A DNA stretch of 64,000 nt from Terriglobia bacterium (GTDB taxonomy: Bacteria > Acidobacteriota > Terriglobia > 20CM-2-55-15), in the NCBI GenBank assembly GCA_965198225.1, contig CBDAOY010000007.1, forward strand, positions 990,045 to 1,054,044, in the 5' to 3' direction. Below are positions 1,955-59,804 of this stretch, in pieces (position 1 is the stretch's first letter; each line of letters begins with the position of its first letter). The notes under the pieces were generated by a model that was given only the letters and a program-made list of their open reading frames with translations, did no database searches and was not told the DNA's origin. The position numbers and the translations under genes are program-made.

Positions 1955-1960
1955 TCGCGT

Positions 1961-25413: not shown

Positions 25414-25688
25414 CTAGTGACCTGTAACAGTGCTATCGGTACCAGCGTTCGGCGGAACGGCGTCGGATTCTAGGAGTGACGCCCGAGCCAATGCTGTTTC
25501 ATTGCGAGGGCGTTACGACACCGAAGACGGCGCCGTTCCGACGAACCCTTCGGGCCGATGGGGGTTGCGGGCGATCTCTTTGTCGGAAGCCGTCACCGAT
25601 GAAAGAGCATCGCTTTCCGTCTCCCTCCTCGACCTCGCCCGCAAGACCCATCGGCGATGGTGCCGATAGCACTGTTACAGGCCACTAG
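25414..25688 (+). mobile_element. 275-bp MITE-like element with ~30-bp terminal inverted repeats, copy 1
   Basis: CTAGTGACCTGTAACAGTGCTATCGGTACC ... GGTGCCGATAGCACTGTTACAGGCCACTAG (28 of 30 complementary). It has internal long hairpins. It matches 34705..34979 at 271 of 275 positions by eye, in the same orientation. Confidence 0.7.
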
Positions 25689-28712: not shown

Positions 28713-28898
28713 AGAAGTTATGCGTAGGCCGTTATCCGTTGTCGGAAGAGGAGCTACCAACTCACAACGACGTACCAACGGCCTACGGCCTACTGAACCG
28801 AGGAAGTTATGAGTAGTCAGCTGTCAGTAGTCAGTTTTGGGAAAGGGATGGCGTACCGCCCAACGGCCTACGGACAACGGCTTACGACTTATTGACGA
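28713..28898. repeat. Intercistronic repeat cluster (GTAGGCC/GTTATCC and AGTAGTC/AGCTGTC heptamer words with inverted partners)
   Basis: CGTAGGCCGTTATCCGTTGTCGG..CCAACGGCCTACGGCCTAC, then GAGTAGTCAGCTGTCAGTAGTCAGTTTTGG..CCAACGGCCTACGGACAACGGCTTAC. Confidence 0.7.
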
Positions 28899-34704: not shown

Positions 34705-34979
34705 CTAGTGACCTGTAACAGTGCTATCGGTACCAGCGTTCGGCGGAACGGCGTCGGATTCTAGGAGTGACGCTCGAGCCAATGCTGTTTCATTGCGAGG
34801 GCGTTGCGACACCGAAGACGGCGCCGTTCCGCCGAACCCTTCGGGCCGATGGGGGTTGCGGGCGATCTCTTTGTCGGAAGCCGTCACCGATGAAAGAGCA
34901 TCGCTTTCCGTCTCCCTCCTCGACCTCGCCCGCAAGACCCATCGGCGATGGTGCCGATAGCACTGCTACAGGCCACTAG
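34705..34979 (+). mobile_element. 275-bp MITE-like element, copy 2
   Basis: Same element as 25414..25688, with four substitutions. It starts 22 bp after the stop codon of the deacetylase gene. Confidence 0.7.
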
Positions 34980-42623: not shown

Positions 42624-45077
42624 TCAGCAGCACTCGCCGGGTTCGCAACACTCAACGCTGGACAGCGCCGCGTCAGCATCCTTGGCCATCACCAGGAAAG
42701 ATCCCGCGTAAGGCTCTCGCGACAGTTTCGCAGCGGTATCGGTGCACACCTGGACGGGTTCGTTTCGGGGAAAGAGGTGGCCTTCCTCGTCGACGACCGC
42801 CTTCAGCGGGCCCAGATAGACGGCGCGCTGGCCTTCGAAGTTGCACACTCCGTTCTTCCCGAACTTGAAGCCCTGGATGATCAGCGAGTAGAAACGGTAG
42901 CCTTCGATCTCTTTCCAGAAGGTTTTCTCGACGAGCGACAGGCCGTAGAAACCCACCTGCTCGAGCATGGCGAAGTATTCATCTTCGGTCAGTGCTCCCG
43001 AGACGCACTCTCCCCACAGCCGGGGGTTGGCTTTCATGTGGTGGGGAATCTTCGATTCGGACACCGTGTCGGAGATGATCGCGCGGCCGTGATTCTTCAG
43101 AACCCGCCACATCTGCGAAAGTACGCGGCGTTTATCGGGCGAAAGGTTGATCACGCAGTTGGACGTCACGATATCGGCCTTCTGATCCTCCAGCGGAAGC
43201 TGTTCGAGGTATCCGCGCCGGAATTCGACGACGTCGTACCCGAGGGATTCGGCGACGATGCCCCGATTCCGTTCGGCCCGCTCGATCATTTCCGTCGTCA
43301 TGTCGATGCCGATCACACGACCGCTGGACCCGACGCGCTGTGCCGCGATAAAGCAGTCGATACCGCCTCCCGAACCGAGATCGACGTATGTTTCGCCCGG
43401 CTTGATGTCGGCGAACCGAATCGGGCTGCCGCAGCCGTAGGACACCTCGACGACTTCCTTCGGCAGTGCCCGAAGCTCGGCGGGGTCGTAGGCGGTCGGA
43501 CAGCACAGCGCTTCCTGAGGCTCGACGGCCGCCTGGGCGTAGAACTGGCGGACTTTCTCACGCGATCGTTCCAAGTCGACGGAGAGGACGCACGTGGAAC
43601 GGGATGTGGCGATCTCGAACCCCTCCGCTTCAATGGTTTCCATCTCAGAAAGCGATTCACCCATCGCGGCCACGACGGTCGGGGAATCGTATCCGGATGG
43701 GCCCTCATGGCTCTTGTTCTCAGAGGCGATCTGCTCGATCGCTCGGAGCAGCAGCCATTCGTGAACCTTCGAAAACGGGTCTTTTCCAAGGACGGTGCCG
43801 GAGTAGAAGAATGAATGTTCGACGTCACCGCCGCCGCACACGTAGCGCAGGTAGCATTCCTGACAGTCTTCTTTCGCGATGACGCTGGCTCGGCGCAGCG
43901 CGCGCGCGCGCGCGGATGTTTTCCAGATTTCCGCCAGCGGCTGTTCCTCGACGTTGCCCATAAGCAGTTCGGGGACACCGGCCAGCGCCGCGGAAGGATA
44001 GACGGTGCCGTCCGCGTAGACGCAGCAGCTGCTCGTGGCCGCGACCGACAGGTCCATCTTGACCCCGCGTCGGCCCTGAGCCCTTTCCCGGGCGACCTCG
44101 TAGTTGTCGAGCTCGATTCCCTTCGAAGATGCGTTTTCCAGGTATCGTTCCAGCATCTCGATGATGTCGGCGGTGAACGGACTCTGCATCTGGTCGTCTT
44201 CCAGAGCCCTGCCCTGTTTGTGGTCCCACAGCAGGTGATGACGCCGGACGCCGAGTTTGTCCAGGAACTCCGGGAATCGAGGAAGCGTGTCGAGGTTCGA
44301 GCGAGTCACGACAGTGGACACGGTCGGTTCAAACGCGGCGTCCAGCAGGGCGCCGATGCCTTCGACGGTTCGCTCGAACCCGGATCCGCGGATCGCGTGG
44401 TGGGTCTCGCGGTCGGGTCCGTCGATGCTGACCTGTAGGGCCACGTTGCCGTTCGCGGCGGCTTTGAGATTGGCCAGGGTATCGCCCCGGAAGAACATGG
44501 CGTTGGTCAGGATGACGAGTTCGCTGTCGGTGCAGATGGCCCGAACGATGTCGATCAGGTCGCGCCGTAAGAACGGCTCTCCACCGGTGATGTAAAATTG
44601 CCGAACACCCATCTGTTTCGCGTCGTCGACGATCTTCAGCCATCGATCAGTTGGAAGTCCCTCGATCCCTTTCGGGGAAGAATCCACGAGGCAGTGGGCG
44701 CAAGTCAGGTTGCAGCGGTTCGTCAGGTGCAGCCACATCTCTTGCGGCTCGTGGCGCTCGATCAACGCCCCGCGACCCGGATAGGTCGGGTGCTGGAACG
44801 GCTCGCTTCTCAGGAAGTCGGTCCGCAGTGCATGGTTGAGCAGCGTGCTGACGTCGAGCCAGGCTTCGGCCCAGTCCTTGCCCGCGTGGGACCGGTAGCG
44901 GCCCACAAGGTCCGAGACCCTCCGCTGTCCGTCGATCCAGCCGAGTATTTCGACGCCCGCTCGGTTCGTCACGATCCAGTTTGGCGCCTCGGGGTCGAAC
45001 ATCAGTCCGAATTCTCCGATCAGCCGCTCTTCGTAACGTGGGGGCGCGTGAAGTACCTGTTCAGGCAAGATAGTCAT
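42624..45077 (-). CDS. Fusion protein: PqqD-like N-terminus + radical SAM/SPASM domain + complete ArsM-type As(III) S-adenosylmethionine methyltransferase + Cys-rich tail
   Basis: Radical-SAM motif TNRCNLTCAHC. SPASM-like CCVYADGTVYPS..CQECYLRYVCGGG. ArsM hallmarks VRQFYAQAA..ALCCPTAYD..YGCGSP..VDLGSGGGIDCF..NCVINLSPDK..WGECVSGA, with all four As-binding Cys positions present. Tail VECCEPGECC. A GGAG Shine-Dalgarno precedes the ATG. Confidence 0.85.
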   Translation of the reverse strand: MTILPEQVLHAPPRYEERLIGEFGLMFDPEAPNWIVTNRAGVEILGWIDGQRRVSDLVGRYRSHAGKDWAEAWLDVSTLLNHALRTDFLRSEPFQHPTYPGRGALIERHEPQEMWLHLTNRCNLTCAHCLVDSSPKGIEGLPTDRWLKIVDDAKQMGVRQFYITGGEPFLRRDLIDIVRAICTDSELVILTNAMFFRGDTLANLKAAANGNVALQVSIDGPDRETHHAIRGSGFERTVEGIGALLDAAFEPTVSTVVTRSNLDTLPRFPEFLDKLGVRRHHLLWDHKQGRALEDDQMQSPFTADIIEMLERYLENASSKGIELDNYEVARERAQGRRGVKMDLSVAATSSCCVYADGTVYPSAALAGVPELLMGNVEEQPLAEIWKTSARARALRRASVIAKEDCQECYLRYVCGGGDVEHSFFYSGTVLGKDPFSKVHEWLLLRAIEQIASENKSHEGPSGYDSPTVVAAMGESLSEMETIEAEGFEIATSRSTCVLSVDLERSREKVRQFYAQAAVEPQEALCCPTAYDPAELRALPKEVVEVSYGCGSPIRFADIKPGETYVDLGSGGGIDCFIAAQRVGSSGRVIGIDMTTEMIERAERNRGIVAESLGYDVVEFRRGYLEQLPLEDQKADIVTSNCVINLSPDKRRVLSQMWRVLKNHGRAIISDTVSESKIPHHMKANPRLWGECVSGALTEDEYFAMLEQVGFYGLSLVEKTFWKEIEGYRFYSLIIQGFKFGKNGVCNFEGQRAVYLGPLKAVVDEEGHLFPRNEPVQVCTDTAAKLSREPYAGSFLVMAKDADAALSSVECCEPGECC

Positions 45078-45256
45078 GGGGTGTCTCCTGATTCAATGCG
45101 AAGGGCAAGTTCTCCGAACGAATCATTTGATCGACTTTTCTTCAGCCGATATTGTAAGCGAAGTCACCGAGATGGGAAGGGTAGCGTGGATGTCAAAGAC
45201 GAGAGAGGTGAGGGGCGCCGGCAGACGATGACGCGACCTGCCGGCGTCTGCGCCTT

Positions 45257-45915
45257 ATCCCGGGCGTCGACGCATCTCTTCCCGGGTGATGAATCCATCA
45301 TCGTCCGCGTCGAGGCGGTCGAAGGCCTCAGTCGGTCGGGTCCACTCGTCACGAGAAACCTTGCCGTCGCCGTCTTCATCCATCTGGAGCATCGCGGCTC
45401 CCCGGCCACGTCCGCCTCTGCCCGGGCGGGAGTTCTGCATCTCTTCGAGAGTGATGAAGCCGTCGCCATCGGCGTCCATGGTCTCGAACATCTGCGCGGG
45501 ACCCGGAAACTCCTGCTGCGACACGCGTCCATCGCCATCGCTGTCGAGCCCCTGGAAACGGGCTTGAGGGTCTGCGCCTCTTCCGCCTCTATCCCGGGCG
45601 TCGCCATCTCTTCCCGAATCCATCATCGTCCGCGTCGAGGCGGTCGAAGGCCTCAGTCGGTCGGGTCCACTCGTCACGAGAAACCTTGCCGTCGCCGTCT
45701 TCATCCATCTGGAGCATCGCGGCTCCCCGGCCACGTCCGCCTCTGCCCGGGCGGGAGTTCTGCATCTCTTCGAGAGTGATGAAGCCGTCGCCATCGGCGT
45801 CCATGGTCTCGAACATCTGCGCGGGACCCGGAAACTCCTGCTGCGACACGCGTCCATCGCCATCGCTGTCGAGCCCCTGGAAACGGGCTTGAGGGTCTGC
45901 GCCTCTTCCGCCTCT
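45257..45915. repeat. Tandem direct duplication (334 bp + 325 bp) inside the EF-hand coding region
   Basis: 45257..45590 and 45591..45915 are identical by eye except for a roughly 9-10-nt indel cluster at the start of each unit (..GACGCATCTCTTCCCGGGTGATGAATCC versus ..GCCATCTCTTCCCGAATCC). Confidence 0.85.
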
Positions 45916-46746
45916 GCCGCGGCCGCCCCCGAATTGCCGCTGGATTTCGTCACGAGCGAGGAGACCATCATCGTTTCGATCGAGCCGGTCGAACGTCTCG
46001 CCGTCGCCCGTCCACTCTTCCCGTGAGATTGTACCGTCCTCGTTCGTGTCCATGACGCCCATACCGCCCGCAGTCCCGGGCCTCTGCCCCGGCCGAGGGC
46101 GCATACCACGCATGCCGCGGCCGCGACGCTGTCCCTGTTCCTGTCCGTAGGCGGTGATCTCCCCTCTGAGAGCGACCTCGAGCGCTGCCCTGGCTTCGGG
46201 GACATCGAACCCGGCCGGCCCGGGGCGTCCCTTGAAGGCGATGGTGCCGTCGGAGCCCACGACATAGATCCGGTCGGGAAACGCGGCGTACGCATTCGCC
46301 GTCCGGTCGTCGATCTTGTCCAGAATGGTCGGCATCGAGATGTCCAAGGCGGTCGTACAGATGTTGGCTGCTTCCTGGCGCTGCTCGTCGGTTTTGGCTT
46401 GTTCGATCAGGATGCCGTCGATAACATTCGCCGCTCCGAGGTTGCCGTCGGTGGGATGCGCTTCTCGAATGTAGACGAAGAAGAAATTGGCGCGGTCCTT
46501 GTAAGCCTGGTACCAGTTTTCGATGTCCACGACATCGCGGCGGAACGGGCCTCAGGTATAGCTGGCGAAGATCAGCGCGGTCGGTCTGCCCGTCATCTCA
46601 GAAAGCGTAATCTTTTGCTTTCCGTCTTTTGTACTGAGCGTGAAATCAGGCGCCGTATCTCCAGGCGTGGGGCCGCCGCCTCGCCGCTGGGCCGTGGCAG
46701 GGCTCACCAGGACGAGGACCAATAACGCAGACGCGAATGTTCTCAT
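45589..46746 (-). CDS. Candidate selenoprotein: secreted deiodinase-like thioredoxin-fold domain (in-frame TGA = Sec) fused to EF-hand repeats
   Basis: Track ORFs 46552..46788 and 45589..46530 are in one frame. Read through TGA 46554..46552 they give ..TALIFASYT-U-GPFRRDVVDIENWYQAYKDRANFFFVYIREAHPTDG... The ATG at 46746 is preceded by GGAGGAG and is followed by signal peptide MRTFASALLVLVLVSPATAQ. There are five intact EF-hand loops plus one truncated loop. Confidence 0.6.
46521..46537 (-). promoter_or_regulatory. Candidate bacterial SECIS hairpin
   Basis: The RNA CGAUGUC-GUG-GACAUCG starts 14 nt after the UGA. It is a 7-bp perfect stem with G/U in the apical loop. Confidence 0.4.
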
Positions 46747-46845: not shown

Positions 46846-47016
46846 TCAGCCCCCTCCGCCAAGGAGGAAGCCTCCTGCGGCGCCGCGCGCTGTTCCCGAC
46901 GCCAGGTCTCCCAGGAGCAGACCGCCTATTGCGCCGACAACGGCAAACACCGCGATCGTGCCCATCTTGGCTGCTGCGGACTTCTTAGCGCAGCTTTGTT
47001 CTTCGTTCTCTGTCAC
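46846..47016 (-). CDS. Possible small glycine-zipper membrane protein (56 aa)
   Basis: Own translation from GTG 47016 (GAGG lies 8 nt upstream): VTENEEQSCAKKSAAAKMGTIAVFAVVGAIGGLLLGDLASGTARGAAGGFLLGGGG*. It is below the ORF-track size cutoff. Confidence 0.25.
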   Translation of the reverse strand: MTENEEQSCAKKSAAAKMGTIAVFAVVGAIGGLLLGDLASGTARGAAGGFLLGGGG

Positions 47017-47152
47017 GAAAGAGCCTCAGTTTCCCCGTTCAGTCGATGATACCGGTGTTGTAACGGGATTTCTTCAAAAAAGCCGGGGTCTGCCGGGGCG
47101 TCGCCCGGATGCGGTAACATTAGGCTGACTTGAGTGTGATGGAGGCAGGTTC

Positions 47153-47431
47153 ATGAAAGCAATATGGCAGGGCGCGGTCTTGGCCGAAAGCGAAGATACC
47201 ATCGTCGTGGAAGGGAACCACTACTTCCCACCGGAGTCGACCGACACCTCCCACTTTCGGCAGAGCCGGACCCACACGGTCTGCCCGTGGAAAGGACAGG
47301 CCAGCTACTACGACATCGTCGTCGACGGCGACACCAATAAGGACGCCGCCTGGTTCTACCCCGAGACGAAGGAAGCCGCCGACCAGATTCGCGGTTATGT
47401 CGCGTTCTGGCACGGAGTCGAAATCACCTAA
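47153..47431 (+). CDS. DUF427 domain protein
   Basis: AIWQGAVLAESEDTIVVEGNHYFP..CPWKGQASYYDIVVDG..NKDAAWFYPE..FWHGVEI. The hairpin GGGGGC-aga-GCCCCC follows. Confidence 0.8.
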   Translation: MKAIWQGAVLAESEDTIVVEGNHYFPPESTDTSHFRQSRTHTVCPWKGQASYYDIVVDGDTNKDAAWFYPETKEAADQIRGYVAFWHGVEIT

Positions 47432-47539
47432 AACGGGGGCAGAGCCCCCATTTCCCTCTTTCGTTCTCAACTTATTTCTGTTTTGGGCAGCGTCCGACGA
47501 CGCTTCAAAACGATCTTGAGCTTGACAGAAAGCCACCCT

Positions 47540-47555
47540 ATGTAGAAATCTACAT
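47540..47555. promoter_or_regulatory. PadR-type operator ATGT-N8-ACAT (ATGTAGAAATCTACAT)
   Basis: A perfect 16-bp palindrome 4 bp upstream of the padR ATG and 12 bp downstream of a TTGACA (47522..47527). ATGT-N8-ACAT is the operator pattern reported for PadR-family repressors. Confidence 0.5.
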
Positions 47556-47558
47556 TCG

Positions 47559-47864
47559 ATGCCTCGAAACTACATGACATATCCGTCCGGTCTGGTCCTG
47601 CAGGCAATCGCTTCGGGGCATCGGTATGGTTTCGATGTGATGGATGTGACGGGATTGCCGAGTGGTACGGTTTACCCGGCACTTCGGAAGCTGGAACGAG
47701 AGGGCTATGTCCGTTCCAGGTGGGAAGGCGAAGATGTGGCCCGCCAGGCAGGGCGTCCACCGCGGCGTTACTACGAGGTTAGCGGCCCTGGCTCGGCGGC
47801 CTTGACCCAGCTGCTGAAACGGTTTCCAGGACTGGCCCGGGCCCTTGCCGCGGAGGTCTTGTGA
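47559..47864 (+). CDS. PadR-family transcriptional regulator
   Basis: LVLQAIASGHRYGFDVMDVTGLPSGTVYPALRKLEREGYVRSRWE..GRPPRRYYEVS. Confidence 0.88.
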   Translation: MPRNYMTYPSGLVLQAIASGHRYGFDVMDVTGLPSGTVYPALRKLEREGYVRSRWEGEDVARQAGRPPRRYYEVSGPGSAALTQLLKRFPGLARALAAEVL

Positions 47865-48475
47865 GGTGGGCAGGCGGCGAGCGGTCTCTCCGCGTCTGCC
47901 TGTTGTGGATTCGCGCTCTGTCGTTCCTCGTCCCGCCCCCGGGCCGGGACGAATGGATGCGGGAGTGGCGTGGCGAGCTTCTGCATCACTGGAGTGAGTT
48001 CGAGACAGGAGTTCAAAAGTCCCGTGCTGCAAGATTCGATTTGTTCCTACATTCGATGGGCGCCTTGCCTGATGCACTGTGTCTGCTGCGTCAGGAGTGG
48101 AGACTGGACATGCTGATGCAGGATCTGACCTATGCGGTACGGACGCTCGGCGCTCGACCGGGCTTCACCTTCGTAGTGATTTTCATTCTGGCGCTGGGTA
48201 TCGGGGCCAACACCGTCGTGTTCAGCGTCGTCGATGCCGTCCTGTTTCGACCCCTACCGTTTCCCGAGCCGGAGAGGCTGGTTGCGATCTGGGACGAAAA
48301 CACCCAAAAGTCGATGCTTCGTCAGGGTCCGGCGCCCGGCAATCTGCTGGACTGGCGTGACCAGTCACGGGTGTTCGATGGTATCGGAGCCTGGTACGCG
48401 GGCGAGCCCAGGACTGTGCGCGACGAGTCCAGTGCGGAGAAAGTGTCCGCCACTATAGGATTTTATTATGTCTAA
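47861..48475 (+). pseudogene. ADOP-type (duplicated MacB/FtsX-like) permease gene, truncated after ~197 codons by island insertion
   Basis: MLMQDLTYAVRTLGARPGFTFVVIFILALGIGANTVVFSVVDAVLFRPLPFPEPERLVAIW..NLLDWRDQSRVFDGIG matches the ADOP N-terminus. Similarity ends at ..AEKVSA (about 48451), where AT-rich foreign sequence supplies a stop. Confidence 0.75.
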
Positions 48476-48535
48476 TAATATCCATAAGTCTTATTTATAT
48501 CAACAGTATATCGTCCTAGACAATCCAGCGCCGTC

Positions 48536-48544
48536 TGGTATAAT
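48536..48544 (+). promoter_or_regulatory. Extended -10 element TGGTATAAT upstream of the integrase
   Basis: A TGnTATAAT match about 70 nt upstream of the integrase ATG, within the AT-rich junction. Confidence 0.35.
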
Positions 48545-48613
48545 CCAAGCCTGTTGGGGGATATATTGGGGGAGTGCTGGAGTGCCTCTGCCCCATCGGT
48601 CGAGGGCTCTGCA

Positions 48614-49792
48614 ATGGCCATTCACAAACTCTCCCAACGCAAGGTAGACACCGCCGGTCCCGGCAAATACGAAGACGGCGGCGGGCTCCGCTTGGTGGTG
48701 TCCAATTCAGGCGCCAGGAGATGGGTCCTGCGTTACACCGTCCACGGCAAACGCCGGGAAATGGGTCTGGGCCGTTATCCCGATGTCGGGTTGGCCGATG
48801 CCCGCACGCAAGCGCTACGGCACCGGAGGCAGTTGGCGACGGGCGTAGATCCCATCGCAGCCCGCCGGGCGGCCCCGGAGACGCTACCCACCTTCACCAT
48901 CTGCGCCGCCCGGTATATCCGGGCCCATCGACGGAGTTGGCACAATGCCAAGCACGCGCGGCAATGGGTCCGGAGCCTGAAGACCTATGCCCGGCCCGTC
49001 ATCGGGGCCAAACGGGTCGACGCCATTGAGACTGAAGACATTGTAAAGATACTCTCTTCGATCTGGAACACCAAGACCGAAACGGCCAAGCGCGTGCAGG
49101 GGCGCATCGAAAATGTCCTGGACTTCGCCGCCGCGCACCAATACTGCGGTCCCCTGAACCCGGCCCGCTGGCGGGGCCATCTGGACAAGTTGCTCCCGAA
49201 GCCCTCCCGGGTGAAGCAAGTCACCCACCACCCGGCCATGCCGTATCCCGAGGTGGCGGACTTCCTGCAGGAGCTGTCCGGACACCGGAGTGTATCGGCG
49301 CAGGCGCTGCGGTTTTTGATCCTGACCGCCACGCGCACCAGTGAAGTCTTAGAGGCGCAGTGGCCGGAAATCGATCGGACCGCCGGTATATGGATCCTTC
49401 CCGCCTCCCGGATGAAAGCCCGACGGGAACATCGAGTTCCCTTATCGGATGCGACCCTGGCGGTTCTGGAAGACCTACCCCGCATGGCAGGCCACCCGTA
49501 TGTCTTCGCCGGATCTCGCCACGGACGCCCTCTGTCGAACATGGCCCTACTGAAATTGATGCGAGACATGGGATATTGCGTTGAGGGTTCCCGGGCTCAC
49601 TACGTGCCGCATGGATTTCGCTCCAGTTTTCGGGATTGGTCCGGCGAGGTGTCGAGCTTCCCGCGAGAAGTTGCGGAAATGGCCTTGGCCCACGTGGTGG
49701 AGAACAAGGTGGAAGCGGCCTACCGGCGGGGGGATCTGTTCGCCAAACGGCGCAGCATGATGCAGGCCTGGGCCGACTACCTCAAGAAGTAG
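48614..49792 (+). CDS. Tyrosine recombinase / P4-type integrase (DUF4102 arm-binding N-terminus)
   Basis: MAIHKLSQRKVDTAGPGKYEDGGGLRLVVSNSGARRWVLRY..GRYPDVGLADAR. Catalytic region TATRTSEV, HGFRSSFRDW, AYRRGD. Confidence 0.9.
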   Translation: MAIHKLSQRKVDTAGPGKYEDGGGLRLVVSNSGARRWVLRYTVHGKRREMGLGRYPDVGLADARTQALRHRRQLATGVDPIAARRAAPETLPTFTICAARYIRAHRRSWHNAKHARQWVRSLKTYARPVIGAKRVDAIETEDIVKILSSIWNTKTETAKRVQGRIENVLDFAAAHQYCGPLNPARWRGHLDKLLPKPSRVKQVTHHPAMPYPEVADFLQELSGHRSVSAQALRFLILTATRTSEVLEAQWPEIDRTAGIWILPASRMKARREHRVPLSDATLAVLEDLPRMAGHPYVFAGSRHGRPLSNMALLKLMRDMGYCVEGSRAHYVPHGFRSSFRDWSGEVSSFPREVAEMALAHVVENKVEAAYRRGDLFAKRRSMMQAWADYLKK

Positions 49793-50066
49793 AAGGGCGG
49801 GTGCGCAAGGTCGACGGGCGGCCAACAATTCATGCATTCCGATGATTCCTTGAAGGAGCCCACTGCTTCCGAGGTGTGAAAGAATTCAGGCTGGTGCGGA
49901 TTCGACGCGGAAGTGGTCGGCGGAGTGAAAGGAGATGCGACAGAATCTGAGGATCTACGATTCCCGACCGAACCCCAGTGGGGCTAGTGTAGGCCGTCAC
50001 CAAAGGGCACCGCGGACTCGGTCGATGTGACTTTGATCAGGGAAAATCATGGACGGAACGGGTCCC

Positions 50067-50708
50067 TCAATGGATCGTCGGCTTCTCCACGCCGATGGTG
50101 GACAGTGCGTGTTGGCGGGCTCGCGTGCAGGCAACCACAACGGCATGAAGCTCTTTCTCCGCGATCCGTGAGAGTTCCCGCACGTTCTTGAGGCTCCGCG
50201 CCAGATCCATCTCCGAGCGCGACGATGTTCTCTCCAGACACTCCACCATGCTGTGCATCATGGCGTTGATCTCCCCGAGATTGTCCATGGCTTCGTGAGC
50301 CCGTTCGGGGAGATCCAGCACCTCCTCGGCACCGAACAGGCCGTCGATGAAACCTTCCAGCTCTTCCATGCGGGTGCGGCAGAGGCGACTCAGATCATCG
50401 AGCTCCGCCTTGGCGGCCATCGGTGTCAAACGGAACGGCCGGGTTCCCGATTGATGCTTTGCCAATTCGTTCCAGAGGCCCATGAGAGCCTCAAACAGCT
50501 CGTTGGCGGCAGCGACATCGTCAAACTTCGGCAGTTCTCCTCCCCAGAAAGCTGCTACGGTCGGGAGGGGCGACGCATCAAGATTGGGACTGGCGATGTT
50601 GCCGAGGAAGCGTGTGCGCACGACATGGAATGGAGTCGGACAGGCATAACCGTCCAATAGCCCGCGGACTCGTTCGTCGCCCTGATATCTGTGGGAACGT
50701 TTCTTCAT
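50067..50708 (-). CDS. UPF0149/YecA-like family protein
   Basis: LDGYACPTPF..ASPLPTVAAFWGGELPKFDDVAAANELFEALMGLWNEL resembles the UPF0149 N-terminal pattern (recollection). Confidence 0.45.
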   Translation of the reverse strand: MKKRSHRYQGDERVRGLLDGYACPTPFHVVRTRFLGNIASPNLDASPLPTVAAFWGGELPKFDDVAAANELFEALMGLWNELAKHQSGTRPFRLTPMAAKAELDDLSRLCRTRMEELEGFIDGLFGAEEVLDLPERAHEAMDNLGEINAMMHSMVECLERTSSRSEMDLARSLKNVRELSRIAEKELHAVVVACTRARQHALSTIGVEKPTIH

Positions 50709-50795
50709 GCCCGATTAACTTCCGGCCGGCGTTGTGCCATTTCACCTTGTCCCTGCGGAAGCAGATTAGTCCGAAGAAGTTCGAGAATTTCCCGT

Positions 50796-51380
50796 TTACG
50801 TCCCACAGTTCTGGTAGTCCGAGGCCATACACGTGCGCGCCCACTCAATGGCGCGGCTGATCTGGGCACGGGTCATTTCACGTTCAAGGTTGCCCCGCGA
50901 CTCCTCGGGCCCAACGCCGGCGACGCTGACCCTCCCATTGGCGCTGGCGATATTGAACCACATGTGCGCGAGCACGTCGTCCTCGATGCCGCCCAAGCCG
51001 TTGTAGTACATCAACCCGAGGTTGAACTGCGCGCTCGCGTGCCCCTGCTCGGCCGCCATGCGGTACCATCGCGCCGCTTCCGCATCGTCTTCGATGACAC
51101 CCTCGCCGTGGGCATACATGGTTCCGAGATTGAATTGCGCACGCGCGTCCCCCTGCTCGGCCGCTATGCGGAACCACCGCATTGCTTCACGGTCATCCTC
51201 CATGGCGGCCTCGTCATCGTCGTAGGTGCTCCCGAGGCTGTCCGGCGTATCCGCGTTCCCCTGCTCGTCTTCGGCCTGAAAGCGTCCTGGTTCGTCCTGC
51301 GCCGGAACACATGCCGCGGCCAGCAGCCAGGAGCCGCAGAGCAGTGTCATCGCGATCCATCGGTTACGGTGTTTCTTCAC
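50796..51380 (-). CDS. Sel1-repeat (TPR-like) protein, secreted, possibly a lipoprotein
   Basis: Signal sequence ..LLAAAC. Three Sel1 repeats (AMRWFRIAAEQGDARAQFNLGTMYAHGEGV.., AARWYRMAAEQGHASAQFNLGLMYYNGLG..). Confidence 0.85.
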   Translation of the reverse strand: MKKHRNRWIAMTLLCGSWLLAAACVPAQDEPGRFQAEDEQGNADTPDSLGSTYDDDEAAMEDDREAMRWFRIAAEQGDARAQFNLGTMYAHGEGVIEDDAEAARWYRMAAEQGHASAQFNLGLMYYNGLGGIEDDVLAHMWFNIASANGRVSVAGVGPEESRGNLEREMTRAQISRAIEWARTCMASDYQNCGT

Positions 51381-51620
51381 GGCAGCCTCCCATGTCCTGG
51401 TGATCTTATGCCTTGAGACTGGATCGTCGATTGTAGGCGATCCAGGACGCGACCCTACAAGTACTTGGCGACTCTAGTGTAATGGGATCCGCAGGTTACG
51501 TTGCGTGCCGAACACGGATCACCGCTGGAGTGTGGACACAGCGGAAGGTTCACCGTGCCGACGGACGGGTAAGCCAGCCACCTTGAGCAGGATCATCTTG
51601 GGACGCCATCGGCGGCACAC

Positions 51621-51971
51621 CTAACGTCGGCGGCCGCAGGACACGAATATCTCCACGTCGGCCCTCAGCGCGCGCTCCGTGTTGTGGCTGAAGGCACCCC
51701 GGGCCGCTTTGAAGTAGGCGGCCAGTTGGTCCCCTGCCTCCGCAGCGTATTCAACACGGAACGAGAGCGTTCTCGAGCGGGTTGGTCTGCCCGATCGCCT
51801 TGTGCAGCGTGGCGATGCTGGAGACGTAGCGGCGCACCGTCGCCGGGGCCTTGACGCGCGCCATGTCGTCGATGAAGGCGACCAGGGTGGGGGCGTTGGC
51901 GGGCAACGCCGGCACGACCTGCTGCCGGCAGCCAGGATCTCCATCTCGCATGTCATCTCTGAAATCAGCAT
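51621..51971 (-). pseudogene. Fragments of a tyrosine-recombinase N-terminal (SAM-like) domain, frameshifted and in permuted order
   Basis: The frame A segment ..CRQQVVPALPANAPTLVAFIDDMARVKAPATVRRYVSSIATLHKAIGQTNPLENA is followed by the frame B segment ..AAYFKAARGAFSHNTERALRADVEIFVSC. In intact integrases of this type the B-like segment precedes the A-like segment. Confidence 0.45.
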
Positions 51972-52009
51972 CGGGCGGCCTCCGGTTCAGTCGAAAAAGG
52001 CCGCGAATT

Positions 52010-52041
52010 TTACTCGCGATAATTCCAGTTATCGCGAGTAA
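52010..52041. repeat. Perfect 13-bp-arm palindrome TTACTCGCGATAA-ttccag-TTATCGCGAGTAA
   Basis: Read directly from the sequence. It lies about 40 bp upstream of the integrase fragments. Confidence 0.6.
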
Positions 52042-52611
52042 AGCCCCGAGATAACGCTTTCCTCGCCGTTGATCACACGGCGCGGCGGATTTTTTTCGAT
52101 CCGGCGCCTGCTGCCCATCAGCTCAGGGGGGGCGGGACGCAACGAGGTCTGTCTACCGAACGGGGGAGTTGTGGTGCCTTCTACGGCCCGAATGAGCGCG
52201 ACCAGATATCGCCAGCGAACCGGAGAAAGGGACATCGACTTGGCAGAACACCGTGAAATCGCGGCGTCACGCGTCACAGGGATAGACACGAAAGCGGTGG
52301 CGAAGGACTGAGGTGGCCGTATCGATACGGTCGTGGCGGCGCGCTCACCCGCAGCCGTGGCTGCGCCGATGATTTGTCCATGGGGCGATCCGCCGCGTGA
52401 CCGCAAGCCGCTGGCGATGAGTGCCTGCCCGGTTCACGGAAATCGGGCTATGGGCTCTGCCGTGCAGCGCCGCCCGCCTGTTCCGTGCCGAGCCCGTTGG
52501 CAGGACATGAGCAGTTTCGCCGCCGATACCGTCGATCAACGTGCGACCGTCATCACCGGTCCCCGGGTGTCGGTCCGCGGACGTCAATTCACAAGGGCGA
52601 CGCGCTACCGC

Positions 52612-53751
52612 ATGCGCGTGCTCTCTTTTTCGCTGCAAGGCCTTAAAACCGGGTTATTTCTGCTATTCGCATCACTGCTGGCCGTGTCGGCGCCGATTCA
52701 GGCCAGCGCGCAGGCGAACAGCCCTCCGGCGGTGACGGGGCCAACCAGCGTCGACTACGCCGAGAACAGCGAGGAGACGGTGGCCACGTATATCGCTACG
52801 GACCCGGAGGCCGAAGCAATCGCGTGGAGCGTGTCCGGGACGGACCATGCGCTGTTTTCCATCACTGCGGGTGTCCTGGAGTTCCTGAGCCCGCCGAACT
52901 ACGAGAGGCCTATCGACGAGGGCGAAGACAACGCGTATGAGGTGGGCGTCACGGCCACGGATTCCTCCGGGGCGGCCGCCACCGTTGCGGTCACCGTGAC
53001 GGTAACAGACGTCAACGACCCGAACATCGTCCTCATCATGGCGGACGATGTCGGTTATGAGGCCTTTGGGGCATACGGTAGCGCACAGTACAGAACGCCG
53101 CGAATTGATGAGCTTGCAGCCGCGGGAGTTCGCTTCACGAACGCTTACTCAAACCCGGTATGCACCCCGAGCAGAGTTGCCTTGATGACGGGTAAGAGCA
53201 GTGTCAGGAACTATGTGGATTTCGGAGTTCTACTCCCCGGAGAATACACGATTACTGATCTCTTTAGTGGGGCCGGATACGCAACGGCCATCGCCGGAAA
53301 GTGGCAGCTTCACGGTAGTGTCGTAGGTAGTGACGTAGTGGCTGGTGTCCCTGCCGGAACCGGATTCGACACGTATTCCTTGTGGAATACAGCCAACACG
53401 GGTCGTAGTCGCTACTGGAATCCTTCCATCGAACGCGACGGTGAAATCATCGATCTGGGCAGCGAGGATTACGGGCCCGACATATTCACGAATTTCCTGC
53501 TGGAATTCATAGAGTCCAACAGAGATAAACCGTTTTTCGCCTACTACCCGATGGTGCTTCCTCATGATCCGTTCGGCTCGCCGCCGCAAGCCCAATGCGT
53601 CGATACCGCTGACGGACAGTGCAATTTCGAGGACATGGTCGCGTATCTCGATTACAACGTCGGCCGCATACGCGACAAGCTGGCGGACCTGGAGCTACTC
53701 GACAACACAATCCTCATATTCACCTCCGACAACGGAACTCACGCACGCTGA
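52612..53751 (+). CDS. Signal peptide + cadherin-like domain + sulfatase N-terminal part (continues in the +1 frame; see 53738..58837)
   Basis: MRVLSFSLQGLKTGLFLLFASLLAVSAPIQASA. VTVTDVNDPNIVLIMADDVGY. Formylglycine motif CTPSR. The frame ends ..IFTSDNGTHAR*, in the middle of the sulfatase domain. Confidence 0.8.
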   Translation: MRVLSFSLQGLKTGLFLLFASLLAVSAPIQASAQANSPPAVTGPTSVDYAENSEETVATYIATDPEAEAIAWSVSGTDHALFSITAGVLEFLSPPNYERPIDEGEDNAYEVGVTATDSSGAAATVAVTVTVTDVNDPNIVLIMADDVGYEAFGAYGSAQYRTPRIDELAAAGVRFTNAYSNPVCTPSRVALMTGKSSVRNYVDFGVLLPGEYTITDLFSGAGYATAIAGKWQLHGSVVGSDVVAGVPAGTGFDTYSLWNTANTGRSRYWNPSIERDGEIIDLGSEDYGPDIFTNFLLEFIESNRDKPFFAYYPMVLPHDPFGSPPQAQCVDTADGQCNFEDMVAYLDYNVGRIRDKLADLELLDNTILIFTSDNGTHAR

Positions 53752-56700
53752 TCTGATTTCAGAACTCGGGGGAGAAATGATCCATGGGGATAAGAACATG
53801 CCCAACAATGGCGGCACGCGGGTACCGCTGATAGTCAGCGTTCCAGGAGGTGAGGGGGGACGGGTGTTCGACGACCTGATCGACTTCACCGACTTTCTCC
53901 CGACTCTGGCTGATGCGGCAGGTCTTACGATTCCTGACGTCAATATGCTGGACGGCGTGAGTTTTTGGGACAGGCTTCAAGGCCGAACCGGCCAACCGCG
54001 GGAATGGATATATACCTATTACTTCCCACGTCCGTTCGCCGATAGGTTCGACAATCCGCAACGTCATCCAGAGGCGTCGTATGTCCGAGACAAGCGGTAC
54101 CAGCTCTACGGAACAGGAGAGTTCTTCGACATTTCCGTAGACCCTCACCAAGTGCATCCGTTGCCGAGTGACGATGAAGAGTCCAGCGCCGCCCGTACCA
54201 AGCTGCAAGCGGTTCTCGACTCGATGCCGGGGAGAGGTGAGGAGATTTACCCATATTTGATAGGAACTGTCCCGGACTCTGAGCCGCGCCCGCGATGGCG
54301 GCCCGTCCTGTCGAAAGCAACTGTGAACGGCGGCCAATTGACGCTCACTTACGCCGGAATTCTGGACTCAAGAGAAGCGCCTCCCGCAGATTCCTTCATT
54401 GTGAACGTTGATGGTTCCGAGCGTGCGGTCTCCACAGTTTCGATAAGCAAAACAGCGGTTACGCTTACACTCGCTTCGGCGGTTACAGTTGGCCAGACGG
54501 TGACGTTGAATTACACGCCGGGAACGAATGCGATTCAGCACGCGAACAGGCCATTCGGGCACAAAGCGGCACCCCTGGTTCGCCAAGGGGTGACGAACAA
54601 CACTGTGGACACGACGGCGCCGGCGGTGTTGTCGATCACGAGCGACGCGACGCACCCGACGAAGAACGCTTTCACGGTGACGATAACCTTTTCGGAGGAG
54701 GTGAGGGGACTCACGGCGGGGGAGATCGCGGTCACCAATGGCACGGGCTCGAACTTTGCGGGCACAGGCGCGAGCTACATGCTCGACATCGAACCCAGCG
54801 ACGATATCGAAGCCGACGTGACGGTCCGGGTTCCGGCCGATGCGGCGATGGACGCCGCGAACCTCGGCAACATCGAGGGGATCGAGACCTTCGCGGTGGA
54901 CACCCAGGCGCCGGCGGTGTTGTCGATCACGAGCGACGCGACACACCCGACGAAGGATGCTTTCAGGGTGACGATCACCTTTTCGGAGGCGGTGACGGAG
55001 CTCACGTCGCAGGATATCGCGGTCATGAACGGAGTGGGCTCGAACTTCGCGGGCACGGACGCGCGCTACACGCTCGACATCGAGCCCAGCGCCAATACCG
55101 AAGACGATGTGACGGTCCGGGTTCGGGCCAACGCGGCGGTGGACGGCGTGAACATCGGCAACGTCGAGGGGATCGAAACCTTTGCGGTGGACACCCAGGT
55201 GCCGAGGGTGTTGTCGATCACAAGCGACGCGGCGCACCCGACGAAGGATACTTTCACGGTAACGATCACCTTTTCGGAAGAGGTGACGGGGCTGACGGCG
55301 AGTGAGATCGTGGTCAGCAATGGCCGTGGCTCGAACTTCGCGGGCACGGGCGCACGCTACACGCTCGACATCGCTCCGAACGCCAACCTTGAAGCCGATG
55401 TGACGGTCCGGGTTCGAGCCAACGCGGCGGTGGACGGCGCGAACAACAGCCACGTCGACGAGGGCGAGACCTTCGCTGTGGACACGCGGGCACCGGTGTT
55501 GATGAGCGCTGCGGTGGATGGCGACACGCTGACGCTGAGCTATGGGGAGGCGCTGGGCAACCCGACACCGGAGCCGGGCGATTTCACGATGAATGTGGAG
55601 AGCGCTGGGCGGAGCGTTTCCAGGGTGGCGGTGAGCGGAAGAGCGGTGACTTTGACGCTTGCCTCGGCCGTGGCGCATGGCGAGACGGTGAGAGTGAGCT
55701 ACAGCCCGGGGACGAACCCGATCCAGGACGCGGTGGGCAACCAGGCTCTGGGACTGAGCAACGCGTCGGCCACCAACACTACGGATGCACCCAACACGGA
55801 TCCGATGATCACGAGTCCGGGGCCGTTCAATGTCACTGAGAATCAAGCGCGGGTGACCCGGCTGATGGCGGCCGACGCCGACCCGGGGGACGAGGTCACC
55901 GGCTATACGCTTGTCGGCGGAGCCGATCGGGCCCAGTTCACGGTCGGTGAGGATACCGGAGATCTGGGCTTCCGGGCGGTTCCGAACTTTGAAGCGCCCA
56001 CGGATGCCTTCAGTAACGATCCGCCAAGTGGGGCAGGAGACAACGAGTACATCGTGGTGGTCCAGGTCAGCAGCGGGGCAGGAACGCGGGTGCGGACGGC
56101 GGAACAGACGATTCGCGTGCGGGTGAGTGACGTGGAGGAGCTTCCAGCGGCGCCGGAGGAGCCGACTTTTCCGAGGGCGACGCCGGACAGCCTGACGGTG
56201 GCGTGGACGGAGCCGGACAACACCGGGCCGCCCATCACCGGCTATGACGTGCAATACCGGGAAGGCGTCAGCGGCGGCTTCACGGATGCGCCGCACTCCG
56301 GGACGGCCCAAACCACAACGCTCATGGGGTTGAGCGAGGGCACGGCCTACCAGGTGCAGGTGCGGGCGAGGAACGCGGAAGGAACAGGTGACTGGTCGGA
56401 GCCGGGCGAAGGACGGACCGTGGCCCCGCTGAGGGTTCGGATGACGCCGGAGCTGGAGCCGCCGGTGGAGGGCCCGTTCTCGGTGAGGTTCAGCTTTTCG
56501 GAGACGGTGACGGGTTTCAGCGGAAGCGACATCGAGACGGGTCAGGACCTTGCCTGCATGGACGATCAGAACAACCCGGTGTTCTGCAACCCCGGCTTTG
56601 CGGCATTCGAGACCACGGATAGCCGGGTCTTCACCACCCGCGTGACCCCGAGGACCGGCGGGGTGGCCAATAACTACAAGCTCACGCTCACGGTGCGTGC

Positions 56701-58837
56701 CGGCGGAGTGAGATCGTCTGTCGGCAATAAGCCTAACGAGGAGGCGACGCTTGAGGTGCCGGTGGCGCCGCCGGGGGTGACGGTGCCGATCGGGCCGCTG
56801 GGGCTGACGGCGAGCGGGGGAAACGGCCAGGTGGCGCTCCGGTGGAATGCCCCGGGGGACACCGGGGGCGCCGCGATGGTCCGCTACGAATACCGGGTGG
56901 CGGATGGCGTCGGCGGGGAGTTCGGCGCCTGGATGCGGGTGGATGCGGCGGCGAGGTCCGCGCCGGTCCCCGATCTGACGAACGGCCGGGAATACGTCTT
57001 CGAGCTGAGGGGGGTGAACGCCCTGGGCTACGGCGGGGTGGAGACCGTGCGAGCCACCCCGGTGCGCACCACCACCGGGGACGGAGGAGGCAGAGGAGGC
57101 GGCGGGGGTGGGGGCGCCCTCCGCGGGACAGTGCCGGGCGCGCCGACGAACCTGACGGCTGAGGGCGGGGACGGCCAGGTCGTACTGAGTTGGGACGCCC
57201 CGGAAAGCGACGGCGGGGCGGCGATCACCGATTACGAGTATTGGAACGGCGGGAGTCGGACCTGGACCTCCATCGGTTCCACGAACACCACCCATACGGT
57301 CACCGGCCTCGACAACGGAACGGAATACACCTTCCAGGTGCGGGCGGTCAACCGAAGGGGCCGGAGCCGGGCTTCCAACCGGGCTACGGCGACGCCGGAC
57401 GTGTTTATCCTGGACTTTGCGCATTTCGCCAATGGCGCGTCCATTACCTCCGATCTGGTGCTGGTGAACCCGGGAAGCATCCCGATCCGGCCCGTCGTTT
57501 ATTTCTACGACACCGGGGGCAATCCAATTAACGCCGAATCGGTGGTGGACGTCACCGGTGATCTGACGGTCGCCGAGGACGGTGCCTTGACGGTCCTGGC
57601 GGATATGGAGCCACTCAGAGAACTCACGATTGCGACCCACGGTCGGGGAGCGCTCGTGAGTGGATCGGTGAAGGTTGTCTCTTACGGTCCTGTCGGCGGG
57701 TTCCTGCGCTATAACGTCCCGGATGTCGGCGTGGCCGGTGTGGGAGCGAGCCCGCCCACACGGGATGTCCTTTTCCCGGCCCGCCGCGAGGCGGGAGGCA
57801 TCAATACGGCGGCGGCGATCCAGAACCTGGGAGAGGCACCGCTGGAGGTGAGCTGCCGATTGATGCGCGCGGGCGCGGTGCTGGAAGAGGCGGAGATCGC
57901 TCTTGCGCCCAACGGGCAGTCGAGTGTCTTTATCGACGAACAATTCCCCGCCACCGATACGTCCGACTTCGCGGGGTCGATGCACTGCGACGCCCCAGCG
58001 ACGTTCACCGGTGTGGCGGTCGAGATGGATGCTGTCCACCGCATCTTTACGGCACTGCCGGTGGTTTCCGCGGATCGGCTCAGCGGCGGCAGTGCGACGG
58101 TCCTGGACTTTGCGCATTTCGCCAATGGAGGTTCCATCACCTCCGATCTGGTGTTCGTGAATCTGAAGACCCGTCCGAGCGGGCCCGCGCCCACTCCCTT
58201 TCAGATGGCCATCCCTCCGAGCCGCCCTGCCATCCATTTCTACGACACGGAGGGCAATCCGATGGCGACCGAATCGGTGGTGGACATCACCGGCGATCTG
58301 GAAGTCACCGAAGACGGCGCCCTGACGGTCCGGACGGAGATGGAGCCCTTGGGCGTGCTCACGATTTCGACTCACAGCCGGGGCGATCTGGTGACCGGAT
58401 CGGTGAAGGTGGTCTCGGAGGGTCCCATCGGCGGGATGCTCCGCTTTGACCTCCCCGGCATCGGCGAGGCCGTGGTGGGGGCCAGCGAGCCCCTCAGCGA
58501 CTTCCTCTTCCCGGTGCGCCGCCAGGAGGGAGGCATCAACACGGGGGTCGCGATCCACAACCTGGAATCGAGTCCGGAGTTGGTGCGCTGCGAACTGCTG
58601 CGCGAGGGCGTGCTGCTCGATACCGTGAGCATCCCTCTTGAGGCCAACGGGCAGACCTCCGGGTTCATCGACGGGCGATTCCCCAGCGTCGATACGTCCG
58701 ACTTCGTGGGGTTGGTACGCTGCAATGCAGTCGGTGAGGGGCTCTTCAGTGCCGTCGCCCTGGAACTGGATGCCGCCAACCGCATCTTTACCACACTGCC
58801 AGTGATCCCGCTGCAAGAGACGATGTCTCAGGAATAG
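53738..58837 (+). CDS. Sulfatase C-terminal part + SwmB-like, Ig-like x3, cadherin-like, FN3 x3 and two ~220-aa C-terminal beta domains (giant surface protein)
   Basis: The frame-2 sequence THADLISELGGEMIHGDKNMPNNGGTRVPLIVSVPGG..DFLPTLADAAG continues the sulfatase fold, followed by the repeat domains. The track ORF start at 53564 is upstream filler. Confidence 0.8.
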   Translation, partial: LTHADLISELGGEMIHGDKNMPNNGGTRVPLIVSVPGGEGGRVFDDLIDFTDFLPTLADAAGLTIPDVNMLDGVSFWDRLQGRTGQPREWIYTYYFPRPFADRFDNPQRHPEASYVRDKRYQLYGTGEFFDISVDPHQVHPLPSDDEESSAARTKLQAVLDSMPGRGEEIYPYLIGTVPDSEPRPRWRPVLSKATVNGGQLTLTYAGILDSREAPPADSFIVNVDGSERAVSTVSISKTAVTLTLASAVTVGQTVTLNYTPGTNAIQHANRPFGHKAAPLVRQGVTNNTVDTTAPAVLSITSDATHPTKNAFTVTITFSEEVRGLTAGEIAVTNGTGSNFAGTGASYMLDIEPSDDIEADVTVRVPADAAMDAANLGNIEGIETFAVDTQAPAVLSITSDATHPTKDAFRVTITFSEAVTELTSQDIAVMNGVGSNFAGTDARYTLDIEPSANTEDDVTVRVRANAAVDGVNIGNVEGIETFAVDTQVPRVLSITSDAAHPTKDTFTVTITFSEEVTGLTASEIVVSNGRGSNFAGTGARYTLDIAPNANLEADVTVRVRANAAVDGANNSHVDEGETFAVDTRAPVLMSAAVDGDTLTLSYGEALGNPTPEPGDFTMNVESAGRSVSRVAVSGRAVTLTLASAVAHGETVRVSYSPGTNPIQDAVGNQALGLSNASATNTTDAPNTDPMITSPGPFNVTENQARVTRLMAADADPGDEVTGYTLVGGADRAQFTVGEDTGDLGFRAVPNFEAPTDAFSNDPPSGAGDNEYIVVVQVSSGAGTRVRTAEQTIRVRVSDVEELPAAPEEPTFPRATPDSLTVAWTEPDNTGPPITGYDVQYREGVSGGFTDAPHSGTAQTTTLMGLSEGTAYQVQVRARNAEGTGDWSEPGEGRTVAPLRVRMTPELEPPVEGPFSVRFSFSETVTGFSGSDIETGQDLACMDDQNNPVFCNPGFAAFETTDSRVFTTRVTPRTGGVANNYKLTLTVRAGGVRSSVGNKPNEEATLEVPVAPPGVTVPIGPLGLTASGGNGQVALRWNAPGDTGGAAMVRYEYRVADGVGGEFGAWMRVDAAARSAPVPDLTNGREYVFELRGVNALGYGGVETVRATPVRTTTGDGGGRGGGGGGGALRGTVPGAPTNLTAEGGDGQVVLSWDAPESDGGAAITDYEYWNGGSRTWTSIGSTNTTHTVTGLDNGTEYTFQVRAVNRRGRSRASNRATATPDVFILDFAHFANGASITSDLVLVNPGSIPIRPVVYFYDTGGNPINAESVVDVTGDLTVAEDGALTVLADMEPLRELTIATHGRGALVSGSVKVVSYGPVGGFLRYNVPDVGVAGVGASPPTRDVLFPARREAGGINTAAAIQNLGEAPLEVSCRLMRAGAVLEEAEIALAPNGQSSVFIDEQFPATDTSDFAGSMHCDAPATFTGVAVEMDAVHRIFTALPVVSADRLSGGSATVLDFAHFANGGSITSDLVFVNLKTRPSGPAPTPFQMAIPPSRPAIHFYDTEGNPMATESVVDITGDLEVTEDGALTVRTEMEPLGVLTISTHSRGDLVTGSVKVVSEGPIGGMLRFDLPGIGEAVVGASEPLSDFLFPVRRQEGGINTGVAIHNLESSPELVRCELLREGVLLDTVSIPLEANGQTSGFIDGRFPSVDTSDFVGLVRCNAVGEGLFSAVALELDAANRIFTTLPVIPLQETMSQE
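54605..55477 (+). repeat. Three tandem 291-bp (97-aa) Ig-like domain repeats within the giant CDS
   Basis: Units start at GTGGACAC (54605, 54896, 55187) and the array ends at 55477. The protein repeat is VDTxAPxVLSITSDAxHPTKxxFxVTITFSEEV.. Confidence 0.85.
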
Positions 58838-58873
58838 ACGGACGCGCCTGACAGGCTAGGCGACGGCGTCGCC

Positions 58874-59803
58874 ATGAGCTTCGAACCGGGCGTCGACGCC
58901 CAACGCGGGAGAGCCCGAGTCAGGGGGGCACGGACCACGGCATGCCTGGACGGTTCACGGCGCGCCGGCGGTAGACATCCGATCCGTGGACACCGTGGGC
59001 CGGGGGCGCCCCCGGATGCATACCGGAGGCCGGCGGGGGTCCATCATGCCTGGGATGACTGTGATGTCGATGTTGCCGTGCTCGGTCGCGTGCCTCGTCG
59101 CAGCCGGCATCCGCGGTGTTGCGGAATGGCTCCACGCGTTGAGGCTCGACGACAGCTCGCGCTGGCTGGGCCCATCCTCCGAAAACCTCTGCTATCCGTA
59201 TCGCGAAAGGCGCTGGCCTCCGGCGAGCCGGAAGATCCCCCCGGCTGGGAACGGATCTATGAAGGCTCGTTCCTGGAAGCAGCGCTGGTCACACAGCTTT
59301 CCGGCGACTTTCCCGGCCCGGTGCTGGCCGTGGTTTCGGTGCCCTTTTACTCGGCAGACCGGCAGCGGATTTTAGTCCCGCGAGGGGCGCGAGTCGTGGG
59401 CACGGCTCAGGCCGTGGCGAATCAGGACCAATCGCGCCTTGCCGTCAGTTTCCACCGTTTGATCTATCCGGACGGGCGTTGGGTGTCGCTGGAATTCAAC
59501 GGCCTCAATCAGGTCGGCGAGGGAGCCTTGAAAGATCAGGTCAACCGCCATTACCTATCCACGTTCGCCGCAGTCGGCGCGGTCGGCATCCTGAGCGGGC
59601 TGACCTTGCGCGGCTCCAATCCCTATGGCGGCGGGCAGCAGAGCCTTCAGGCTGGGGCCGGACAAGGGCTCGGCCAGGCCGCGACGCGCATCCTGGATCG
59701 TTTCCTGAATCGTTTGCCCACCCTCACCATTCGGGCCGGGCATCGGCTTCGCGTTTGGTTCACTTCCGACGTGCTGGTTCCCCGGCCCCAACAAGGAGAT
59801 TGA
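58874..59803 (+). CDS. VirB10/TrbI-like protein, C-terminal barrel domain only (N-terminus not credible, probably truncated)
   Basis: GSFLEAALVTQLSGDFPGPVLAVVSVPFYSADRQRILVPRGARVVG..RLAVSFHRLIYPDGRWVSL..LPTLTIRAGHRLRVWFTSDV. No TM or Pro-rich N-terminal region was found. A possible start is the ATG at 59126. Confidence 0.6.
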   Translation: MSFEPGVDAQRGRARVRGARTTACLDGSRRAGGRHPIRGHRGPGAPPDAYRRPAGVHHAWDDCDVDVAVLGRVPRRSRHPRCCGMAPRVEARRQLALAGPILRKPLLSVSRKALASGEPEDPPGWERIYEGSFLEAALVTQLSGDFPGPVLAVVSVPFYSADRQRILVPRGARVVGTAQAVANQDQSRLAVSFHRLIYPDGRWVSLEFNGLNQVGEGALKDQVNRHYLSTFAAVGAVGILSGLTLRGSNPYGGGQQSLQAGAGQGLGQAATRILDRFLNRLPTLTIRAGHRLRVWFTSDVLVPRPQQGD

Positions 59804-59804
59804 A

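Follow-up and report, generated by a model that had tools for sequence, protein, structure and literature searches.

The last third of a gene for a probable secreted, deiodinase-like selenoprotein with an EF-hand tail is present twice, head to tail, at positions 45256-45915 of the 64,000-nt stretch of DNA analyzed here (the window). This is an ordinary, non-conserved duplication of the 3' end of a gene, of a kind already known and without a mechanism of interest; it reflects either an error of assembly or an accident of very recent date, and not a functional device. We infer a technical origin as more probable than not, and favor an assembly artefact or a variant carried by a minority of reads, to which we assign about an even chance, over a genuine duplication fixed in the strain, which we regard as a serious possibility that stays short of an even chance.

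Anatomy of the repeat and its reading frames

A direct-repeat search and TRF identify a 300-nt direct repeat with 100% identity (45291-45590 and 45616-45915; period 325, TRF score 1250). No other long tandem repeat in the 64-kb window is perfect, the remaining tandem arrays being 64-92% identical. The repeat at 45256-45915 is real, and chance is excluded as its source. The gene lies on the minus strand. X1, the downstream copy in gene sense, occupies 45256-45589 (334 nt), and X2, the upstream copy, occupies 45590-45915 (325 nt), with a boundary between them that is ambiguous by 1 nt. The first-pass annotation had reported direct repeats at 45257..45590 and 45591..45915, coordinates that are one base off but otherwise sound, and had described them as identical except for an indel cluster of roughly 9-10 nt at the junction end. 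This cluster corresponds to three deletions in X2, of 7, 1 and 1 nt, which are the sole differences between the copies, the repeat bodies showing zero changes across 2 x 300 nt. The two units are adjacent, head-to-tail and nearly identical, with a single-copy ancestor, flanks that are collinear on both sides and one novel junction, as in a tandem segmental duplication; the corresponding single-copy locus of a same-species assembly (L003) aligns to X1, X2 and both flanks. A GC-rich hairpin (45216-45246, minus strand; z = -2.2) lies just past the original stop codon, outside the duplicated unit, and occurs only after X1.

The three deletions, here termed the lesion, fall at the 3' end of X2 in gene sense (45597..45621, minus strand), where X2 departs from X1 and from all relatives. 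They comprise a 7-nt deletion (ATCACCC in gene sense, placed between plus-strand positions 45615 and 45616) and the loss of single C and T bases at 45604/45605, in the left arm of the palindrome GCGTCGACGC; the lesion thereby removes half of a CCCGGG site and damages that arm. Because the net loss amounts to 9 nt, the reading frame is restored before the stop codon in X2, which reads GF-GKRW-RRPG-TAG where X1 reads GF-ITREEM-RRRPG-TAA. The exchange of ITREEM for GKRW destroys the sixth calcium-binding loop, which in X2 fails the PROSITE pattern PS00018 at position 12 (Arg instead of Glu), leaving five PS00018 loops in the window's 313-aa product versus six in the single-copy form.

The duplicated unit spans EF-hands 3-6 together with the stop codon. 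X2 is the translated copy, encoding EF-hands 3-5 and a damaged EF-hand 6 (GFGKRWRRPG), and the 313-aa ORF has the C-terminus ...DADDDGFGKRWRRPG, closed by TAG at 45591..45589. X1 retains an intact EF-hand 6 (DADDDGFITREEM) and the original TAA at 45257..45255; since the unit holds a stop codon and 334 = 3 x 111 + 1, X1 is untranslated, out-of-frame 3' sequence without a function. Relative to the translated ORF its frame is +1, which is why an alternative-frame ORF of 346 aa (45255..46295), with the C-terminus ...DADDDGFITREEMRRRPG and the TAA of X1, overlaps the 313-aa ORF. The 346-aa ORF is spurious. The translations bear out the first-pass description of an upstream copy with a cut last EF-hand (stop at 45591..45589) and an intact, out-of-frame downstream copy, as well as its explanation of the ORF overlap. 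They do not sustain its suggestion that the duplication truncated the protein: because the stop codon lies within the unit, the duplication itself leaves the protein unchanged, and it is the 9-nt lesion, a separate change beside the junction, that breaks the last EF-hand.

The window contains further repeats. Three in-frame tandem repeats of 291 nt (54605-55496; 81-86% identity) encode Big_12 Ig-like domains in a giant surface protein. A dispersed repeat of 275 nt (25414-25688 and 34705-34979; 99% identity), containing an inverted segment, lies upstream of an SBP_bac_5 gene in one copy and of an adenylate/guanylate cyclase gene in the other; a small mobile element is one possibility and a regulatory leader common to both genes another. 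Intergenic REP-like repeats with CAACGGCCTACGGATAACG as their building block occur at 9699-10241 and 28861-28901, including a 250-nt tandem block at 9.7-10.2 kb.

The host gene and its relatives

The translation of the whole gene (46746..45589, minus strand) comprises a signal-peptide-like N-terminus, a T4_deiodinase/thioredoxin-fold domain (Pfam PF00837, E = 4.5e-24), a Gly/Arg-rich linker and the EF-hand tail, for a total of 385 residues in the window versus 388 in relatives. An in-frame TGA (codon 65; 46554..46552, minus strand), in the motif ASYT-U-GPF, probably encodes selenocysteine. In the alignment with mouse Dio3 it falls in the column of the catalytic Sec, a residue replaced by Cys in the 4TR3 crystal construct, and the codon is kept in L006 and L007, which represent two further species (at about 2980 in each). 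Gene callers cut the gene at this TGA into 64-aa and 316-aa products in every assembly examined. A candidate bacterial SECIS element, the 7-bp hairpin CGAUGUC-GKK-GACAUCG, lies 14 nt past the TGA (46521..46537, minus strand); it is conserved in L006 and L007, but shows no covariation, a z-score that is not significant (-0.4) and no Rfam match. An Rfam search of the 44-48 kb region returned sub-threshold chance matches only, and no tRNA-Sec gene was found within the window. Deiodinase-like selenoproteins have been predicted in prokaryotes since the analysis of Sargasso Sea data (Zhang et al. 2005, PMC1088965; review PMC9312934). The host gene resembles them in combining the T4_deiodinase/thioredoxin fold with an in-frame UGA at the catalytic Sec position, and differs from them by its C-terminal tail of six EF-hands. 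The tail consists of three EF-hand pairs repeated with a period of about 165 nt (68-75% local and 54-61% global identity), which are themselves older internal duplications; the first pair (EF1-2; 45916..46080, minus strand) lies outside the new one.

The comparison with related genomes proposed in the first-pass annotation was carried out, and the unit is present in one copy in the same-species assemblies L001 (ERZ25072076, 6x), L002 (ERZ25067264, 6x) and L003/L010/L012 (ERZ25069191, 18x, 2.78-Mb contig), and in the Terriglobia MAGs L006 and L007, which represent other species (88% nucleotide identity in the unit and 60% amino acid identity, respectively). The three same-species contigs carry a 316-aa gene followed by a 177-nt spacer and an 817-aa radical-SAM/methyltransferase gene, and in the window the distance from the X1 stop codon to the 817-aa gene is also 177 nt. 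The closest database protein, P0001 (316 aa), equals the window product except for one Thr/Ser change and an intact ITREEM C-terminus. Nine aligned protein orthologues, down to 57% identity, contain all six EF-hands, stop at the same place and have one copy; none of the nine carries both copies in one continuous frame or reads through the stop codon. A search of GTDB genome contigs for a representative of the species yielded other species only. Apart from the duplication and its lesion, 4 substitutions and one 2-nt indel separate the window from L010 over 15.3 kb. These comparisons show that the single copy is ancestral, and that the duplication occurs in this assembly alone and postdates a lineage split of at most 0.03%.

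The relatives also bear on whether the two frames could be used jointly. If ribosomes shifted by +1, read through the stop codon or initiated internally close to the X2/X1 junction, the product would be a ten-EF-hand isoform or a separate four-EF-hand protein, and the layout offers some basis for such recoding: the second copy is intact, the frame is open across the junction (the 346-aa ORF), two ATG codons lie in the X1 frame 14 codons upstream of the junction, and the stop codon follows C CCG GGA, formally a heptamer of the X XXY YYZ type. The heptamer, however, would shift by -1 into a junk frame (a 147-aa ORF), whereas the EF-hand frame is +1; it also precedes the stop codon in single-copy genes, and the sequence has none of the known +1 motifs. 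Long open alternative frames are moreover expected at 61-63% GC, no relative has a second copy and the nine orthologues share their stop position, so that we consider recoding extremely improbable. Of the three options that the first-pass annotation had left open, frame switching as a conserved function is therefore removed by the relatives, and a recent duplication and an assembly artefact remain.

We also considered the locus as a programmed frameshift site and rejected it, since the two-frame layout is not conserved (relatives stop after RRRPG or its equivalent) and the heptamer would shift into the wrong frame. Known programmed sites, such as those of prfB (+1) and dnaX (-1), likewise have two overlapping frames with coding potential and a slippery heptamer before the stop; here the arrangement is unconserved, and the downstream frame repeats what the upstream frame encodes instead of specifying a domain of its own.

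The neighborhood of the gene varies among strains. Immediately downstream, the 817-aa gene (42624-45077, minus strand) encodes a radical SAM and SPASM protein fused to a class I methyltransferase and ending in CCEPGECC; its pairing with the selenoprotein gene is kept in L001-L003 and L006 (95% amino acid identity), and the partner was not found within 3 kb in L007. On the other side, the L001/L002 strain has a 1.4-kb IS256-family element (Transposase_mut) in place of 12.9 kb of the window (47008-59883 versus L001 4146-5523). The replaced 12.9 kb carry a tyrosine integrase, a sulfatase and a giant fn3/Big_12 protein and border T4SS-like genes (VirB8, TrbL), and the region looks like a mobile-element hotspot next to the duplication. 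The L003/L010 strain presents a third structural haplotype, with another IS256-type transposase and different content past window position 53622 (L010 about 15011 onward). Within the replaced segment, a 4-nt tandem duplication (CACG CACG, 53740-53747) splits ORFs 52333-53751 and 53564-58837, separating a sulfatase N-domain from its SGSH_C continuation, which is fused to a 1,700-aa fn3/Big_12/SWM repeat protein; this frameshift is probably real and the gene a pseudogene, because an independent assembly, L011, has the same sequence.

Origin of the junction and the lesion

The single novel junction (...CCCGGGATA/GAGGCGGAAG..., 45580..45600, minus strand) shows exact microhomology of at most 1 nt (A) and an imperfect AGGCG match with a one-base offset, the breakpoint sequences being CGGGATA-AGGCG and GCGGCAGAGGCG. 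It is absent from all related loci fetched. It also lacks a match in JGI metagenomes, where a control pattern taken from inside the unit has no match either and the species itself is missing. The lesion sequence is missing from all 12 related loci, with no single-copy lesion allele among the siblings, and the window contains no second copy of the lesion segment at up to 3 mismatches. Sibling assemblies differ by about one indel event per 12-15 kb, and against this background the three deletions, all of them less than about 30 nt from the sole new junction, are not independent. The lesion was made by the same process as the junction.

Two sources were tried and discarded. Gene conversion, as the origin of the lesion, lacks a template: the window offers none at up to 3 mismatches, and no sibling has the lesion in a single-copy allele. 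Had the two copies of the perfect 10-nt repeat AGGCGCAGAC, 324 nt apart, served for slippage, the junction would differ from the one observed.

Tandem duplications are among the commonest bacterial mutations, and a real, extremely recent duplication in the strain chromosome could have arisen through illegitimate (microhomology or slipped-strand) recombination or error-prone break repair, with the same event leaving the small deletions beside the junction. The simple anatomy, with flanks equal to the ancestor and one novel junction, and the imperfect homology at the breakpoints are consistent with this origin, as are the older duplications with a period of about 165 nt in the same gene tail. 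So are the in-frame net loss of 9 nt, the high quality of the flanking sequence, and the capacity of long reads to span the region, whereby at least one read probably contained the duplication. RecA-independent tandem duplications, as generally known, share with this locus the head-to-tail copies, the single novel junction, the short imperfect breakpoint homology, the zero divergence between copies and the absence from close relatives. Bacterial slippage duplications, however, normally leave clean junctions, whereas here three deletions lie 8-35 nt inside the junction, and their clustering within 30 nt alongside two unchanged 300-nt bodies demands a single complex event. The duplication is also missing from all three same-species assemblies, including one that is only 4 substitutions and one other indel away over 15.3 kb; a perfect 300-nt repeat is unstable, and the damaged copy is the translated one, an arrangement that would not be favored by selection. 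We accordingly hold a genuine duplication to be plausible, but place it somewhat below an even chance.

The technical reading, which we prefer, posits that a long-read metagenome assembler generated a false duplication or followed a variant with very few supporting reads. Reads from single-copy molecules could then have polished both 300-nt bodies, but would not have aligned to the last ~35 nt of X2; because they cannot align there, uncorrected indels would persist only in these ~35 nt beside the junction. The single copy and identical 177-nt spacer of the three same-species assemblies point to such an origin, as does L010, which at 18x is nearly identical to the window over 15.3 kb and yet single-copy; X1 matches the single copy of L003 at 334 of 334 positions. 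The cluster of three deletions, tied to how the junction was made, argues in the same direction. The sibling contigs bear names of the form ctgN_Cx_l, which appears to be the header style of metaMDBG.

Two low-coverage sibling contigs, L005 (2x) and L008 (5x), display apparent structural errors that further support a technical origin. In L005 a trigger-factor gene runs straight into the middle of the EF-hand unit (segments 1-1120 and 1121-6912, with a breakpoint corresponding to window position 45415), and this contig is most likely chimeric, with its break inside this same repeat. L008 is missing two stretches: 30 nt that encode the strand ahead of the Walker A motif in an ABC ATPase (window 30095-30124) and have a GGTATCG repeat on their flanks, and 81 nt from a REP-like intergenic region (window 28771-28851); these losses are either low-coverage assembly errors or slippage polymorphisms.

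False duplications in long-read assemblies have been documented by Trigodet et al. (bioRxiv 10.1101/2025.04.22.649783), who report that metaMDBG and other long-read assemblers produce direct-repeat duplications and indels without read support, contigs that follow a minority variant present in a single read, and concatenated haplotypes, and that such errors arise at loci with haplotype variation. The present locus offers that setting, with two haplotypes in these samples (AGT/ACT, and the IS256-type replacement). It shares with the published cases a long perfect direct repeat confined to a single contig, small frame-changing indels, a spurious ORF, coexisting haplotypes and sibling contig names apparently in the metaMDBG style. 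The published cases are nevertheless defined by read clipping or lack of read support and are mostly longer, while the present one is known from assembled sequence.

Several observations run against a technical origin. Long reads easily span 660 nt, and a minimizer-graph assembler normally needs at least one read with the duplication, that is, a real molecule. The remainder of the window has high base quality, and the net change of -9 nt preserves frame and stop codon, which random error does one time in three. The ACT allele of the window strain is present in both X1 and X2, so simply joining the two known haplotypes does not explain the repeat. A narrower version of the artefact, in which a single-copy allele with an in-frame 9-nt deletion and a wild-type allele were assembled in tandem, would account for the in-frame lesion, and the joining of subpopulation variants is documented (bioRxiv 10.1101/2025.04.22.649783) and the locus polymorphic among samples. 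A single-copy allele with the lesion, however, did not turn up in the 12 related loci and the 313-aa product is recorded on one contig only, and we therefore judge this version unlikely, though less remote than recoding.

Implications for annotation and for the gene family

The duplication matters mainly for annotation. The deposited MAG contains a 313-aa product with a broken last EF-hand and invites the prediction of a spurious overlapping ORF of 346 aa, neither of which should be propagated.

Were the duplication real, the protein would be altered by the lesion alone, which would shorten it by 3 residues and remove its sixth Ca2+ loop, and the intact X1 would constitute silent 3' sequence. 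Through RecA recombination between the 300 identical bases of X1 and X2, one unit would be lost and the wild type regained. A functional extension of this scenario, with the repeat acting as a reversible RecA toggle of one calcium site in a secreted selenoenzyme, or with the second copy expressed through +1 recoding or internal initiation, strikes us as highly improbable. A real duplication would represent a snapshot of the growth of an EF-hand array by tandem duplication, here off-register and unproductive.

A by-product of the analysis is more useful than the duplication itself: the gene family to which the host belongs encodes a UGA-containing, and probably selenocysteine-containing, deiodinase-like protein.
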